Below, one piece after another: positions 8,965 through 52,975 of a stretch of DNA of 52,975 nt. Made by a program: the position numbers and the translations under genes. The notes beneath the pieces are model-generated. The model did no database searches. It had not been told where the DNA came from and worked only from the letters and a program-made list of their open reading frames with translations. The stretch's first letter is position 1. Each line of letters begins with the position of its first letter. This DNA is from Escherichia phage phiEcoM-GJ1, in the sequence record NC_010106.1, one strand, 5' to 3'.

Positions 8965-9236
8965 TTTCGATAGACCAAGTTCCTGTTGAACTAAGTAAGG
9001 CAAAAGGAAAGTTGGACAATGCCAAATCCGACTTGTCGGCCTTCGATTTAAATGCTCCAGTTGATAAAGTTAAAGTTTTCATCGACTGTATTAACGGATG
9101 GGTGCTTGTTGAGCATGCAGTCCTTAGAGCACTACTTGTTGACGAAGTTAACAAAGCTCAGGCAGCATTTGACGAGCTTGATGAACTCAACACACTGTTG
9201 AACAACACTTTAAACGATGCATTAAAGGGTAAATAA
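8961..9236 (+). CDS. hypothetical protein
   Basis: 91-aa ORF, translationally coupled. Confidence 0.5.
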   Translation: MISIDQVPVELSKAKGKLDNAKSDLSAFDLNAPVDKVKVFIDCINGWVLVEHAVLRALLVDEVNKAQAAFDELDELNTLLNNTLNDALKGK

Positions 9237-9631
9237 TGAATGTTAAGCTCGGCCAACGTTCTTTAGACCGACTTAAGGGAGTAAATCCTCCATTAGTTGC
9301 AGTTTTCAAACGGGCATGTGAAACCATGCCCTTTGATGTAACTGTTCTGGAGGGTTTACGCTCTTATGAACGTCAACAAGAGCTTTTAAAGCAGGGTGCA
9401 ACCAAAGTTTCTATTAGCCGACACATGTCAGGCAATGCTTTAGACATTGCACCATATCCAATTGACTGGAATGACCTCGAACGATTCCAAATTGTGGCTG
9501 AACACATGTTCAAAGCTGCAAAAGAGCTTGGAATTGTCATCCGATGGGGTGGAACATGGGAACGTTCATTCACTAAGCCAGTGAAATGGGCCAAGTTCCT
9601 TGATGCACCACACTTCGAACTTCCAGCATAA
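9236..9631 (+). CDS. peptidase M15-family protein (VanY/L-Ala-D-Glu peptidase-like), possible cell-wall hydrolase
   Basis: Zn-ligand pattern typical of M15 peptidases: SRHMSGNALDI and DAPHFEL; 131 aa; no signal peptide. Confidence 0.7.
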   Translation: MNVKLGQRSLDRLKGVNPPLVAVFKRACETMPFDVTVLEGLRSYERQQELLKQGATKVSISRHMSGNALDIAPYPIDWNDLERFQIVAEHMFKAAKELGIVIRWGGTWERSFTKPVKWAKFLDAPHFELPA

Positions 9632-13123: not shown

Positions 13124-13144
13124 ACATTAGTTGGATGTGGAAAG
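13124..13144 (+). promoter_or_regulatory. conserved motif ACATTAGTTGGATGTGGAAAG (candidate phage-RNAP promoter)
   Basis: 93 bp upstream of the codon-optimised 13219 gene. Confidence 0.45.
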
Positions 13145-13218: not shown

Positions 13219-13557
13219 ATGGCTAAGATTGTAACCGTAACTCAGTACGAAGCTAACGATGGTTCCCTGTTCCTGACCGAAGCAGAATGTAATGCGCATG
13301 ACTTCAAACTGGAAAACGGTGCTAAAATTGAGAAAGCTGCCGAAGCGTACCTGAACACCGTTGGCGCTATCGACCGTTCTCGCTCCATGCAGAAGAACAC
13401 CATCGAGCAGTTCCTGGCATTCTACCTGCCGTGGGTTGAAGCTGGTGAGCCGGAAGTTGAGCGTACTAAGTTCGATACTCCGAAAGAAGCTAAAGTTGCT
13501 GACGCAAGTGTTGCCGAAGCTGCCGAAGCTGCTGTTGAAGAAGCTCCGGTATTCTAA
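13219..13557 (+). CDS. hypothetical abundant protein with acidic/Ala-rich C-terminus ending in F
   Basis: 112-aa ORF, AAGG RBS; CTG/CCG/CGT-rich codon usage resembling host highly expressed genes; ends ...AEAAVEEAPVF. Confidence 0.65.
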   Translation: MAKIVTVTQYEANDGSLFLTEAECNAHDFKLENGAKIEKAAEAYLNTVGAIDRSRSMQKNTIEQFLAFYLPWVEAGEPEVERTKFDTPKEAKVADASVAEAAEAAVEEAPVF

Positions 13558-14455
13558 GTTGCCGATGGCAAACTTGAGAGACTAAGCTAAATCGATCTGG
13601 CACGCACTGGAAGATTTCCGGTGCTGCCTTGAATCCATTCCGAGTGAGTGGGTTTCAATTTGTGCATAATCCAAACACCATTGCATGAGCCTTCGACGGA
13701 AGGCAATGTTGGGAAATTTGTTGTGTACAAATTGAAGTAGTTTTCTGAGTCTTACGACGGGCCTAAACTGCCTGAAGTTATTGCGACTGTTTTAAACACT
13801 AAACACAAGTGCAAATGATTCTGAAATGCGAGTTGCGGCTTAATTAAATTTAAGTCCTCTCCGTGGTCTTCCAATCCCATGTAACCAAATTTGGCGCATT
13901 GTGGCTTCGAGATGTGATTAATAAATCGGAGCAATAATTAATTTGTATTCTGCGATGCAATGCAGGCTTAAGTCCCTCAGTGCGCGTAGGGATGTGACAG
14001 AGTACAAACTTAATTATGCAGTTGGATATTTCTAGAGGACGGACGAGCACACTGGAATGTCTTCAATTGGTTTAGTGTGAGAAGCTATGCCAATGTGAAA
14101 CGTAACTCCTTGGGGAAGTGCTCCTCTGGATTTCCCTCCACACAGGAATCTCAAGCCTGTGGCAGCGACTTCGAAGCTGCACTGCGTAACCTAATTCACC
14201 CTAAAGTGAGTTGCCCTGAGCATGGAAATAAACTGCTCATAACCGATGGTATCTACAAAGGTAGATTAAATCAGGTTGCCTGTTGGTACTTGGGTTCAAC
14301 ACCTGCTTGCACTCGCAAAGTAGTGCCTCGTACCTGAGATGAAGTGAGTCGGGACCATCAATCCCACGTTATGTCAAAACACAGTAGGCGACTCACGGAT
14401 TCTACAAGCCTCGCAGTTCGGGAAAACCTGCGTTATCAAAACCCCCTTATTCTTT

Positions 14456-14550
14456 GGACGAGTAGCTCAGAAGGTTTGCATTGTGCTCAGTCAGGTAGAG
14501 CAATCTGTTCGACAGATGTGTCGTTGGTTCGAATCCAACCTTGTCCGCCA
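14456..14550 (+). tRNA. tRNA-like element, non-canonical (possible degenerate or interrupted tRNA)
   Basis: Acceptor stem GGACGAG/CTTGTCC (one G-U), T-arm GTTGG-TTCGAAT-CCAAC, discriminator G plus CCA; TAGCTCAG and TCAGGTAGAGC D-arm halves are separated by a 20-nt insertion that duplicates GCTCAG; the anticodon-arm region forms a hairpin with only a 5-nt loop, so no anticodon can be assigned. Confidence 0.35.
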
Positions 14551-14575
14551 CTCTCAACAACAACATGGAGTCCTC

Positions 14576-14716
14576 ATGGACATTGATGCATTAGACAATT
14601 TGGACTTCGGTGCTGCCGAAGAAGCAATTGAAGAACTCAAGAAGAAGCAGGACGAAGAAGCAATCGTTCCTGGTGCTGGCGATAATGACTGCTCAAGCGG
14701 TGCGTGTGCCATCTAA
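14576..14716 (+). CDS. hypothetical small acidic protein (46 aa)
   Basis: ATG 5 nt after GGAG, directly downstream of the tRNA-like element. Confidence 0.3.
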   Translation: MDIDALDNLDFGAAEEAIEELKKKQDEEAIVPGAGDNDCSSGACAI

Positions 14717-14724
14717 GGTGATTT

Positions 14725-14961
14725 ATGCAACAGCTTAAATCAATAGTTCTTGGCGTCCTGACTGCATTTGGTATTCTTATTGCAGTGTTCCTCAAAGGCA
14801 AAAGCTCAGGCAAAGCCGAGGAGCGTCAGGAAGCCACAGAGAAGCAACTAGATTCATTAAAAGAATCTATCGAGATTAAATCGCATGTTCAGAAAGAAGT
14901 GTCTAGCAGTTCTGATAGCAATGTCGATAGTGAGTTGCTCTCAAAGTGGGTTCGTAAGTGA
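14725..14961 (+). CDS. small membrane protein with N-terminal TM helix and charged helical tail (i-spanin-like or other bitopic membrane protein)
   Basis: AAGGTG RBS; IVLGVLTAFGILIAVFL hydrophobic segment, then a K/E-rich region. Confidence 0.5.
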   Translation: MQQLKSIVLGVLTAFGILIAVFLKGKSSGKAEERQEATEKQLDSLKESIEIKSHVQKEVSSSSDSNVDSELLSKWVRK

Positions 14962-15094
14962 TTATTGCTTAATTGCACAGCCAATATATTTGGATGTTGC
15001 AGAAGTGAAAATCTTATCACGCGAAACCAAAACACAGATTTTAGTCCACAATGAAACGTGGGCACAAAAGTGTTCTCAACTTACCCGACAGTGA
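14885..15094 (+). CDS. predicted lipoprotein (o-spanin-like or Llp-like), overlapping the 3' end of the upstream ORF in another frame
   Basis: MFRKKCLAVLIAMSIVSC: basic n-region, hydrophobic core and lipobox-like IVSC; starts inside the 14725 ORF in the +1 frame. Confidence 0.4.
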   Translation: MFRKKCLAVLIAMSIVSCSQSGFVSDYCLIAQPIYLDVAEVKILSRETKTQILVHNETWAQKCSQLTRQ

Positions 15095-16027
15095 GTGAAC
15101 AAATGCTCGCCATCGCATTTCATTTGGCAGTCCGGTACGGGACTTTAAACACACGTACATCATAGTCGAGGGAGTGCGCGACTTTAAATAACGAGACTCT
15201 AACCACTTGTGGTATGGTAGGTGTAATTCCTGCAAGTTGCTCTGGGCATAACAATTGAAATTGCTGCCTCGCATTGAACGCGAGAAAGTTCAGGTAGTCA
15301 CTTCCTAGAACAGTGGCCGGGAACAGACCTAGACAAAAGTGCTTGAGAACGTTAGCTCTGTCTTGCCAGCATTAATGGCACGTTGGCCGCGTAAAGGCCA
15401 CAGCGTCTGACCAACGTATCGGTCACCAAATTCAATGGATTCGTAGAGTTAATTAAACCTGCACGATGGGATAGGGATGAAGCATCCGAGGCCGACTGTG
15501 TAATTGTGAACGTGGAGTTCACCGAATCCGCCAAATCAATGGGCTAGTGCAAATGTCAGTCACTAGAAGATGTGTTGCAAAACGTCTTCCATGATGTGCA
15601 AAGTGTCAGTCACGTGCCCACCACTTTCCTAACAGTTATGCCTCTGTTCAAAAGGCTCAAGAGAGCGTCTGGCATACCGTAGCGATACGGCTTAGTTGCG
15701 CTGATTGTGTTGTGCAGAAAGAAAGTTCAGGCTTTCGTTTGGGTTACTCCTCATCCCGAAGTTAGCTGGATTCAAAATCCAGACTATGTTCCTATACACA
15801 TGAAATATGCAAGTCGAGGGTTCTTAATGTTCAAACATGATGCGAGCATTAAGCGGGTTTATACTTTTCCCGATGGTCCCCATAAACAAGGCTGATTCAC
15901 TTGGGCGGTTCGAATCAAATTTAATAAGTGTCTTGGCCGCAGTGGAAACATCATTTAAGCCAATGTATTGTAATGTTCGTAATAGTCCACGTCAGGACAC
16001 TTACTTAAATTTTAACTGGAGAGAAAC

Positions 16028-16258
16028 ATGAAAACTGCTGAAATTGCCGAAGAGATTTATAAGGCTGTAATAGCCAGTCAAATTACCAGTGAAGTCCTGC
16101 ACATGGATATTGAAGAAGTTCGCAATGCCTTTGGCGGTTTTGCAATCTTGTCAATAGAAGCTGCGGAAGCACTGACAAACACGTACAACCATCGTGAATA
16201 CGAGAAGCGGTCTGTACTAAATGCGTCGCTAAAAGAAATTCAGGCGTCATTAAAATAA
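16028..16258 (+). CDS. hypothetical protein
   Basis: 76-aa ORF with GGAGAG RBS. Confidence 0.55.
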   Translation: MKTAEIAEEIYKAVIASQITSEVLHMDIEEVRNAFGGFAILSIEAAEALTNTYNHREYEKRSVLNASLKEIQASLK

Positions 16259-16314
16259 TACCATTATCATGGTGCGGAGCTAATTTATCTCCCACCATAT
16301 GAACCGGAGAGCAA

Positions 16315-16965
16315 ATGATTACTGCAACACTCGTTGACCACATGGGCAGCGACCTCACAACTGTTAATGCTGCACGAGCTTCTTATGGTGCAGAGTCCCA
16401 TGAGATGACATTGCGCGACGAAAAGCTCATTGAATTTCTCGCAAGGCATAAGCACAATACACCTTTTGCCCATGCGTATGTAACATTACGCTGCACTGCA
16501 CCAATCTTTGTTGCACGCCAACTGGGTAAGCACCAGGTGGGCTTTCGTTGGAACGAAGTTAGCCGTCGTTACAAAGATGGCGAAGCAATCGAAATTGAAT
16601 GCTTTGTACCTGATGTGGTGTTTGGTCGTCCTGAAAAGTTGATGACTCAGACTGCACAACCATTGCCACAGGATTTTGCTGACGATATTCACTATCGCAT
16701 GGAAATCCACAACAAGGCTTGCATTGCAGAGTATGAAACGTTAATTGGTTTGGGGATTGCTCCAGAGCAAGCCCGAATGGTGTTGCCACAATCCATGATG
16801 ACTACATGGATTTGGACTGGCTCTTTACTGGGCTGGGCTAATATGTACAAGCAACGCTCTACAGAGCACGCCCAATATGAGGCACGTTTGTTTGCAGAAG
16901 AAGTTAATAAAATTATGTCAGAACTATTTCCGGTTTGCTGGAAGGCTTTGACTAATCAGGAATAA
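16315..16965 (+). CDS. thyX: ThyX-like flavin-dependent thymidylate synthase homolog with non-canonical signature
   Basis: Resembles ThyX across the N-terminal half (HxxTPFxHxxxTxxxxAPIFVARQ...S-RY); the position of the canonical RHR-x7-S signature reads KHQ-x8-S. Confidence 0.75.
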   Translation: MITATLVDHMGSDLTTVNAARASYGAESHEMTLRDEKLIEFLARHKHNTPFAHAYVTLRCTAPIFVARQLGKHQVGFRWNEVSRRYKDGEAIEIECFVPDVVFGRPEKLMTQTAQPLPQDFADDIHYRMEIHNKACIAEYETLIGLGIAPEQARMVLPQSMMTTWIWTGSLLGWANMYKQRSTEHAQYEARLFAEEVNKIMSELFPVCWKALTNQE

Positions 16966-50943: not shown

Positions 50944-51285
50944 ATGGAACGCTTATCCATTCAGATGTTTCTGGACCTAATGCACCAATATGGCGTTTGG
51001 CATGGATTGCTGGCTGGCCTGACGGCTTTAATCCGTGGGGCATATGAGAGTGAGGGTTTAAGCAAGGCGTTGCTGGATGCGACGCTATGCAGCTTAATCG
51101 GCTTGTTTGCATTTCAGGTCGCTGGCACATTTGAGACTTTCACGACTAACGTCACTATGCAGTTGGTTCTGGCTATCGTGATTGGTGTCATCGGTGCTAA
51201 CCTCATTATCACAACTGTCAGGGAAAGTTTCTCTGGCGCAATCAAACAACTTAATCCTTTGACGTGGTTCAAGAAGGCACGATGA
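50944..51285 (+). CDS. holin (class I-like, 3 predicted TM segments)
   Basis: 114 aa; hydrophobic segments GVWHGLLAGLTALIRGA, LLDATLCSLIGLFAFQVAG, VTMQLVLAIVIGVIGANLIIT and a basic C-terminus; AAGGAA RBS; immediately upstream of the lysin. Confidence 0.6.
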   Translation: MERLSIQMFLDLMHQYGVWHGLLAGLTALIRGAYESEGLSKALLDATLCSLIGLFAFQVAGTFETFTTNVTMQLVLAIVIGVIGANLIITTVRESFSGAIKQLNPLTWFKKAR

Positions 51286-51302: not shown

Positions 51303-51857
51303 ATGCTATCATTCAAAGTCCTTGCACTTCTGGCAGCTTTAGTTCACATCAACGCCCCAGCTTCGGTTGGGGCAGTGAACACTGCTATTATAGATTTTGC
51401 AAGTCATTCTTATTTAAATGGAAGTCTAAAACTATCTTCTTCACAACGCAAAGAGCTAGAATGCTACGCTAAAGTTATCTGGTATGAAGCTCGCGGAGAA
51501 GACAAACATGGAAAGATTCTGGTAGCTAATGTCGTCCGTAATAGAACAGAGTTCGGGAAGCCATTCGCTAACACCGTTTGTAATGTTGTCTATCAACGCA
51601 ATCAATTTGCATGGACACGAGAAGCAAAGAAGAAGAATGCTCAATGGAAGCATGTAGCAAAGGTTAATTATGCCACAGAACAACAACAAGTTCTGGACAC
51701 GATTAATGTTGCAATCTCTTTTGTATTATTTAATCAACCCTCTGTCACCAAAGCAACTCACTTTTGCACAGCATCGGAGAAGTGTAACTTCAAGAATGTC
51801 AAAGGATTGGGACGTTATGGTGGCCATAAATTCTATGAGTATCTAGGAAATCTGTAA
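51303..51857 (+). CDS. SleB-like cell-wall hydrolase (endolysin) with N-terminal signal or signal-anchor sequence
   Basis: N-terminus [24 protein letters not shown]; catalytic domain resembles the SleB/Hydrolase_2 family ([11 protein letters not shown]...VVRNRTEF...QFAWT). Confidence 0.7.
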
Positions 51858-52975
51858 TGGCTTACACTACCTTTTCACAAACCAAGAATAACCAATTACT
51901 AGAGCCAATGTTCTTTGGTCAGAACGTTAACGTTGCTCGATATGACCAACAGAAGTACGGCATATTCGAGAAGTTAATTGAGAAACAATTGTCATTCTTC
52001 TGGCGACCGGAAGAGGTAGACGTTTCCCAGGACCGTATTGATTATCAGAAGCTACCTGCAAACGAACAACACATTTTCACCAGTAATCTTCGTTATCAGA
52101 TTCTTCTTGACTCAATTCAGGGACGTGGGCCCAACACAGTTTTGCTTCCAATCGTGAGCATTCCTGAATTGGAGACGTGGATTGAAACCTGGTCTTTCTC
52201 CGAGACTATTCATTCACGTTCTTATACCCACATCATTCGTAATATTGTTACAGACCCAAGCATTATCTTTGATGAAATCGTAACTAACGAACACATCAAG
52301 GCACGAGCAATTGGCATCTCCCAATATTATGACGAACTCCAGCAACTCACTGCATTATGGCAGTTGTTCGGAGAAGGGAGCCATGCTGGTCATGAAATTA
52401 GTCTGCGTGAGTTGAAGAAGAAGCTGTATTTATGCCTCATGTCTATCAATGCATTGGAAGCAATTCGCTTCTATGTCAGCTTTGCTTGCTCATTTGCCTT
52501 CGCAGAACGTAAGTTAATGGAAGGAAATGCCAAGATTATTCGCTTAATTGCACGAGATGAAGCACTTCATTTGACAGGAACTCAGCACATGCTGAACCTT
52601 CTTGCAAGTGGAAAAGATGACCCAGAAATGGGTGAAATTGCTGCTGAATGCCGCCAAGAATGCCAGAAATTGTTCGAAGATGCTGCTCAACAAGAGAAGG
52701 ATTGGGCCGATTATTTGTTCAAAGATGGCTCTATGATTGGCTTAAACAAGCAAATTCTATGCGGATATGTGGAATATATCACGAATATTCGTATGCAAGC
52801 AGTTGGATTAGATGCTCCATTCAAAGGTGCAACTAACCCGATTCCGTGGATTAATGCATGGTTGAATTCGGATGCTGTACAGGTTGCTCCACAGGAAACG
52901 GAGATTAGTTCCTACCTGGTCGGGCAAATTGACTCCGAAGTTGATACCAATGCGCTCGGTGGATTCGAGTTGTAA
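51857..52975 (+). CDS. nrdB: ribonucleotide reductase class Ia beta subunit
   Basis: 372 aa, alignable end to end with E. coli NrdB as recalled ([11 protein letters not shown]...[11 protein letters not shown]...[21 protein letters not shown]...[22 protein letters not shown]), but with AT-richer codon choice than a host chromosomal gene. Confidence 0.9.

Follow-up and report, generated by a model that had tools for sequence, protein, structure and literature searches.

Which function is encoded by two short open reading frames (ORFs) that overlap in different frames far from the holin gene of Escherichia phage phiEcoM-GJ1? We addressed this question for positions 14725 to 15094 of sequence record NC_010106.1. 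The window is the whole analysed stretch of 52,975 nucleotides (nt), and all features are given on its + strand unless stated otherwise. A sequence-only reading of this DNA, made without database searches, had compared the pair to Rz/Rz1-type spanins and had offered an early receptor-blocking lipoprotein module as an alternative. Our analysis indicates that the two ORFs very likely encode the two-component spanin of phiEcoM-GJ1 (Carltongylesvirus, Chaseviridae), consisting of an i-spanin (14725..14961) and an o-spanin (14885..15094), an assignment of function that rests on targeting signals, homology and gene context. The pair itself is already known. It was catalogued in 2018 as the overlapped two-component spanin of phiEcoM-GJ1 in SpaninDB, where Kongari et al. 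2018 (PMC6139136) list it in Table S4 as 'phiEcoM-GJ1 ovl +1 14724 14961 14884 15094 overlap 77' and give lengths of 78 and 69 amino acids (aa) as well as an i-spanin coiled coil at residues 26-58 in Table S3. Coordinates, +1 frame, 77-nt overlap and the lengths of both proteins are identical to those found here. In the same catalogue the i-spanin of phiEcoM-GJ1 is a singleton at the 40% identity threshold.

The i-spanin gene extends from an ATG at 14725 to a TGA at 14959-14961 and encodes 78 aa. A Shine-Dalgarno sequence, AAGGTG (14715..14720), can be read 4 nt before the start codon, and the related phage Mangalitsa has an annotated ribosome-binding site (RBS) at the corresponding position. 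Residues 6-23 of the protein (SIVLGVLTAFGILIAVFL, codons 14740..14793) form an 18-aa run without charge and with a mean Kyte-Doolittle hydropathy of 2.68, which is predicted to be a transmembrane domain (TMD). The tail of 55 residues that follows contains 11 lysines and arginines and 11 aspartates and glutamates. Besides, the i-spanin carries a juxtamembrane KGKSSGK and the conserved C-terminal motif VDSELLSKWVRK, and it has no cysteines at all. An AlphaFold model from the single sequence (mean pLDDT 70.6) consists only of helices, at residues 2-26, 33-60 and 69-77.

The o-spanin gene starts with the ATG at 14885 and ends with the TGA at 15092-15094. Its product is a 69-aa precursor with a predicted mature lipoprotein of 52 aa. 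The signal peptide MFRKKCLAVLIAMSIVSC (codons 14885..14938), followed by SQ, comprises a basic n-region, a hydrophobic core and the lipobox IVSC (14927-14938) with the cysteine at residue 18, and this N-terminus fits the PROSITE-type lipobox rule. Since the residue at position +2 is a serine, the protein lacks the aspartate signal for inner-membrane retention. When every ORF in the window was scanned with the PROSITE-type rule, the o-spanin was the sole match on the + strand. Nine further matches were found on the minus strand; where checked, they lie opposite large + strand ORFs, and their N-termini are unlike signal peptides. Moreover, all genes annotated in the related phage ST32 are on the + strand, and the same holds for Mangalitsa apart from one doubtful minus-strand gene.

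Because its start is offset by 160 nt into the i-spanin gene, the o-spanin gene is read in the +1 frame. The 77 nt shared by both genes (14885..14961) encode the C-terminal motif of the i-spanin and, in the other frame, the signal peptide of the o-spanin. The sequence-only reading had described an N-terminal transmembrane helix with a charged helical tail in the first ORF, a second ORF that starts inside the first in another frame, and a lipoprotein signal with a lipobox-like IVSC, and all of these are borne out by the data above. It had also spoken of an embedded arrangement, which has to be corrected: the genes are overlapped and not embedded, as the o-spanin gene extends 133 nt beyond its partner.

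The comparison to Rz/Rz1-type spanins is supported at the level of the protein families. The i-spanin matched phrog_1026 over residues 1-78 (E 3.6e-20) and the o-spanin phrog_1275 over residues 1-67 (E 1.1e-17), both of which are named 'Rz-like spanin' and belong to the lysis category. Pfam and NCBIfam yielded nothing meaningful for either protein, and a search of a large protein database returned 2-3 near-identical matches per protein without distant relatives. A tblastn search with the o-spanin, however, matched 100 phage records, of which 56 showed less than 60% identity; the hosts of these phages include Escherichia, Erwinia, Pantoea, Pectobacterium, Klebsiella, Proteus, Pseudomonas, Shewanella and Rhizobium. 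In BLASTP comparisons with the lambdoid phage mEp390, identity was 33% for the o-spanin (E 4e-14) and 30% for the i-spanin (E 8e-8). Alignment of 11 diverse o-spanins revealed invariant C18 (the lipobox cysteine), C28, I34 and C63 and nearly invariant P33, I52 and H55, while 11 aligned i-spanins have in common the TMD, a juxtamembrane KG+SSGK and a C-terminal D.EL..W.R. Judged by these similarities, both predicted proteins can be assigned to the widespread short-spanin family PHROG 1026/1275.

The distant members of this family are found where spanin genes are usually located. In mEp390 a homologous overlapped pair directly follows two holin genes and an endolysin gene, in the Lokivirus Shy the homologous pair follows holin and endolysin and is annotated as i-spanin/o-spanin, and in Pseudomonas phage AF it directly follows the endolysin gene. 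We also scanned IMG/VR and obtained six loci, two of which were informative. In one of them (L009) the pair comes after an ORF of 285 aa that, by eye from the sequence, resembles an enzyme of the T4-lysozyme type. In the other (L010), again judged by eye, it comes after an ORF with an M15-peptidase-like motif and a small hydrophobic holin-like ORF, and the pair of this locus has the motif SDYCLIAQPI in common with the window. Counting holin genes as well as short hydrophobic ORFs that resemble holins, three of these five overlapped pairs (mEp390, Shy and L010) have such a gene upstream. As in the window, the i-spanins of mEp390/HK639, Shy/Halfdan and AF are short (82-94 aa) and contain a TMD and a C-terminal motif of the D.EL..W.R type; their o-spanins (67-78 aa) have a lipobox and two invariant periplasmic cysteines within the pattern C..(x)PI ... 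HN..W...C and are 31-36% identical to the window protein. Their genes overlap as they do here. Unlike the pair in the window, which lies 36 kb from the holin gene, these pairs stand immediately after an endolysin gene.

Close relatives allowed us to ask whether both frames are maintained. The nearest records are Carltongylesvirus phages from the family Chaseviridae, for example ST32, flopper, Mangalitsa and the TH phages, and in Mangalitsa (NC_048799) gp37 and gp38, annotated as 'Rz-like spanin', are 91% and 96% identical to the two window proteins. Within an alignment of the window and 15 close relatives (92-98% DNA identity), both frames are intact in all 16 genomes, and a 12-nt deletion within the i-spanin gene of one relative is in frame. 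Variable columns amount to 33/160 in the part that encodes only the i-spanin and 18/114 in the part that encodes only the o-spanin; of the latter 18 columns, 11 are third codon positions and one is a second position. The overlap contains 2 variable columns out of 74, compared with 51/274 in the single-coding parts (Fisher p = 2e-4). Both genes are under purifying selection, and variation that is about 7-fold lower exactly in the stretch read in two frames is what dual coding predicts. A side observation concerns the end of the o-spanin: in TH23, MLP1 and one IMG/VR genome (loci L024, L023 and L008) a 1-nt deletion near window position 15076 turns the terminal ...KCSQLTRQ into ...KCSNLPDSE. As the last codons are shifted in these relatives, the residues after C63 seem to be dispensable.

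The comparative evidence fixes both gene models and can thereby correct the annotations of related phages, although it adds little beyond correct annotation. RefSeq already names the orthologues in Mangalitsa, flopper, 4HA13, PM1 and Myduc 'Rz-like spanin' or 'putative i-spanin'; the genome announcement of Mangalitsa is silent on lysis genes. In the GenBank records of other relatives (PYps16N, PYps23T, PO103-1, Pel53 and Ecp_YSF) the pair is misannotated. Labels found there for the 78-aa i-spanin are 'endolysin' and 'L-alanyl-D-glutamate peptidase', and the start of the o-spanin is placed too late (57 aa or shorter), which cuts off the signal peptide partly or wholly. Some records of relatives leave the o-spanin without annotation.

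Two-component spanins were defined as a class by Summer et al. 2007 and Kongari et al. 2018, and most features of this class can be recognised in the pair: an i-spanin with a TMD and a predicted helical domain, an o-spanin with a lipobox and no aspartate at +2, genes that overlap with the second in the +1 frame, and cysteine in the predicted periplasmic part of at least one subunit, here C28 and C63 of the o-spanin. The class is further marked by an N-in/C-out i-spanin, by binding between the subunits and by a lysis block with spherical cells, stabilised by divalent cations, when the spanin is lost. The usual location next to holin and endolysin genes is seen in the distant homologues and not in the window, and it is not obligatory for the class.

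Comparable features were described for phage T4, whose spanins PseT.3/PseT.2 we compared on the basis of the published description (PMC6139136) and not by sequence alignment. Like the window pair, they combine an i-spanin without periplasmic cysteines with an o-spanin that has two, which is the commonest cysteine combination in the catalogue of Kongari et al., and both cysteines of PseT.2 are needed for lysis (PMC6139136). A C-terminal helix is predicted for the o-spanins of T4 and of the window. The T4 genes, in contrast, are separated and not overlapped, and the proteins are longer (117 and 83 aa).

Lambda Rz/Rz1 falls in the same functional class. The N-terminal TMD of Rz is flanked by the same numbers of basic residues as that of the window protein, and Rz1 is a lipoprotein of the outer membrane whose gene is read in the +1 frame relative to its partner, as is predicted for the o-spanin. 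Nevertheless, the differences are considerable. Rz1 is fully embedded, proline-rich and has one cysteine, and Rz has 153 aa and two cysteines, whereas in the window the o-spanin gene outruns its partner, the i-spanin is half as long and free of cysteines, and the o-spanin has two cysteines and a predicted helix. Moreover, neither PF03245 (Rz) nor PF06085 (Rz1) was matched in Pfam at E up to 10, and when the family alignments were compared by hhalign with lambda Rz and Rz1, the probabilities were 0.4% and 2.9%, respectively, the latter confined to the signal peptide. By these comparisons the pair is not a sequence relative of lambda Rz/Rz1.

How might the pair act? In the standard model, which comes from the lambda system, spanins are inert until the peptidoglycan has been removed. 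By analogy with lambda Rz/Rz1 and T4 PseT.3/PseT.2, the 78-aa protein would be anchored in the inner membrane and expose its helical domain to the periplasm, and the 69-aa protein would receive a lipid at Cys18, undergo cleavage and reach the inner leaflet of the outer membrane. The two proteins would bind each other through their C-terminal parts, so that the complex would span the periplasm through the peptidoglycan mesh. Disulfides would be supplied by C28 and C63 of the o-spanin and none by the i-spanin, as in the '0 + 2' pattern of T4. As long as the peptidoglycan has not been removed by the holin (50944-51285) and an endolysin (51303-51857 and/or 9236-9631), the complex would stay inactive; thereafter it would draw the membranes together and disrupt the outer membrane, and lysis would be complete.

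Several observations weigh against a spanin function. The pair lies 36 kb from the holin gene and is not part of a lysis cassette here, and it is probably transcribed together with early/middle genes. The o-spanin gene has a weak RBS (GAGA, 14872-75), and the AlphaFold model of its product, again from the single sequence, is of low confidence (mean pLDDT 51.2). With 55 residues in the i-spanin and 52 in the o-spanin, the predicted periplasmic parts are short, and it is not obvious how they bridge the periplasm. Similarity to lambda Rz/Rz1 does not go beyond the signal peptide, and we found no experiments on the short-spanin family (PHROG 1026/1275) in the literature searched. A further point, though not a strong one, is that the charges around the TMD of the i-spanin (one lysine or arginine on the N side and four on the C side; net charges +2 and +1) cannot by themselves fix its orientation. 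An objection to a periplasmic tail based on the positive-inside rule was considered and dropped, as lambda Rz and P2 LysB show identical flank counts of 1 and 4.

The first of these points depends on where the other lysis genes are located. The holin, a presumed lysis partner, is encoded at 50944..51285 (113 aa, lambda S family; Phage_holin_3_1 E 6e-8, phrog_126 E 7e-18). Adjoining it is the gene of a presumed cell-wall hydrolase (51303..51857, 184 aa; Hydrolase_2 Pfam E 3e-15, phrog_938), a SleB-like enzyme with a hydrophobic N-terminus. No spanin candidate was found after the holin-Hydrolase_2 pair, and none is to be found beyond 51857, because nrdB (51857-52975) directly follows the hydrolase gene. 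A third presumed lysis partner is an endolysin-type peptidase of 131 aa at 9236..9631 (Peptidase_M15_4 Pfam E 4.6e-9, phrog_465 endolysin E 6e-55), which is annotated as endolysin in Mangalitsa and ST32 and lies 5.1 kb upstream of the spanin pair. For phiEcoM-GJ1 the ST32 paper likewise lists gp21 (131 aa) as endolysin, gp73 (113 aa) as holin, gp74 (184 aa) as endolysin and gp75 (372 aa) as RNR beta, and in addition a 95-nt tRNA; ORFs of exactly these sizes and a tRNA of this length are present in the window. The phage has two different peptidoglycan hydrolase genes, one for a cytoplasmic-type M15 enzyme in the early/middle block and one for a Hydrolase_2 enzyme by the holin. The sequence-only reading had stressed the remoteness of the pair from the lysis genes. 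Its figure of about 36 kb from the holin-lysin pair stands, but the M15 gene upstream is much closer.

The position of the pair is also conserved. We compared it in Mangalitsa, 4HA13, PM1, Myduc, Orgeat and Faunus and found it maintained in all six Cleopatravirinae genera examined (Carltongylesvirus, Sabourvirus, Suwonvirus, Myducvirus, Loessnervirus and Faunusvirus). In each of them the pair comes after conserved hypothetical genes of ~675 and 340-360 nt and upstream of a primase/helicase gene, which is preceded by thyX except in Myducvirus. In T4, too, the spanin genes are remote from the genes of holin and endolysin (PMC6139136). Since the lysis genes are dispersed, the position is conserved in six genera and T4 provides a precedent, the remote location is unremarkable. 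For biocontrol or engineering of Chaseviridae it is of practical interest that lysis functions are encoded at three sites, namely at 9.2 kb (M15 gene), 14.7 kb (spanins) and 51 kb (holin plus Hydrolase_2).

With regard to transcription, the window contains nine copies of the 17-mer ACATTAGTTGGATGTGA, all on the + strand, compared with 0.24 expected when up to three mismatches are allowed. They start at 571, 2899, 3835, 7046, 10498, 10639, 13124, 21898 and 41982, and judged by position most of them lie between long ORFs in the left 22 kb. The repeat is probably the promoter of the T7-like RNA polymerase of the phage. The nearest copy upstream of the pair, and thus the candidate promoter, is at 13124..13140, and no other follows until 21898; the pair is therefore probably part of the thyX-primase-polymerase transcript, and the early/middle block with the spanins would probably start at the repeat at 13124. 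By analogy with lambda, such early or middle placement would be tolerated, because spanins would do no damage before the wall has been removed. Rfam and promoter/terminator scans of 13400-16400 detected only a tRNA and nothing else above chance.

Could the proteins be spanins by descent that have taken on an additional or different role, for instance in early envelope remodelling or in the control of lysis timing? The unusual shortness of both proteins and a position away from the holin that is conserved in six genera might be taken as hints, as might a small acidic ORF that is conserved directly upstream of the i-spanin gene in four genera. This ORF (14576..14716) encodes a very acidic, cysteine-containing sequence of 46 aa, MDIDALDNLDFGAAEEAIEELKKKQDEEAIVPGAGDNDCSSGACAI, and is 95-100% identical in 44 of 44 Carltongylesvirus records; of 14 variable columns in its last 52 nt, 11 fall on third codon positions. 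In Myduc, Faunus and Orgeat the equivalent place is occupied by small acidic ORFs that end in D-C-x(2,3)-C-K-I, while no counterpart was found at this place in 4HA13 or PM1, and the 46-aa sequence has no match in Pfam or NCBIfam. One could imagine that an early spanin and the 46-aa protein, which would hold it in check or assist it, form a three-part module, or that an early envelope function such as exclusion has been added, but we give little credence to such a scheme. Nothing positive indicates a second function, and the T4 spanins are also encoded apart from the other lysis genes. Furthermore, all conserved residues are those expected for a spanin, i.e. the lipobox, the periplasmic cysteine pair and the C-terminal motif. 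Overall, a second or altered role appears quite improbable.

The receptor-blocking module suggested in the sequence-only reading would consist of a lipoprotein and a membrane partner that mediate early superinfection exclusion in the manner of T5 Llp or Cor. This idea would be in line with the location of the pair in the early/middle block, far from the holin and with its nearest promoter-like repeat at 13124, and in Mangalitsa the annotation includes a T4 Imm-like gene ~0.5 kb upstream of the pair. Nevertheless, neither protein matched an exclusion family in Pfam, PHROG or NCBIfam, the pair is not located beside the tail-fibre genes (~47-51 kb), and the homologues in mEp390, Shy, AF, L009 and L010 end lysis cassettes instead of lying next to receptor-binding genes. 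An exclusion lipoprotein also needs no obligatorily overlapped partner in the inner membrane, and the occurrence of homologues in phages of Escherichia, Pseudomonas, Shewanella and Rhizobium is hard to reconcile with a receptor-specific blocker. We therefore consider an exclusion module highly improbable. Finally, one could suppose that one or both ORFs are open by chance, in ORF-poor and non-coding DNA around the tRNA. Although the scarcity of long ORFs in the region and the GenBank records that omit the o-spanin, start it later or mislabel the i-spanin as 'endolysin' might lend this notion some colour, it is refuted by the comparative data, namely frames that stay open in 16/16 genomes and through a 12-nt deletion, the third-position bias in the o-spanin part (11/18 variable columns), the ~7-fold reduced variation of the overlap and protein-level homologues in unrelated phages.

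A two-component spanin of this family would be among the shortest of its kind, and the family could serve as a minimal model of how the periplasm is bridged. Its gene architecture varies as well. The genes overlap by 4 nt (ATGA) in 4HA13 (Sabourvirus, locus L014, 2708-3192) and in Faunus (Faunusvirus, locus L028, 2696-3201), by 77 nt in the window and by ~80 nt in Myduc, so that one family includes architectures from 'separated' to 'overlapped'. This range provides a small example of the evolution of overlapping genes.

The region around the pair contains a tRNA gene at 14456..14550, which ARAGORN called a 95-nt tRNA-Leu with the anticodon cag and which was matched by Rfam at 14456-14547. In the ST32 paper and in the records of relatives the same tRNA is called tRNA-Arg, with a length of either 95 or 71 nt. 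Two stretches of ~0.9 kb each, 13560-14450 and 15100-16020, lie on either side of the tRNA and the spanin genes, and in them we found neither a convincing + strand ORF nor an Rfam match above threshold. At this site other genes are inserted in relatives: Mangalitsa has a T4 Imm-like gene, 4HA13 an HNH endonuclease gene, and PM1 and Myduc have tRNA genes downstream of the spanins. From the sequence, the flanks look like a variable region of the genome. In the records, Staphylococcus hyicus is given as the host of one phage of this family, which is odd because the phage carries Gram-negative spanins.

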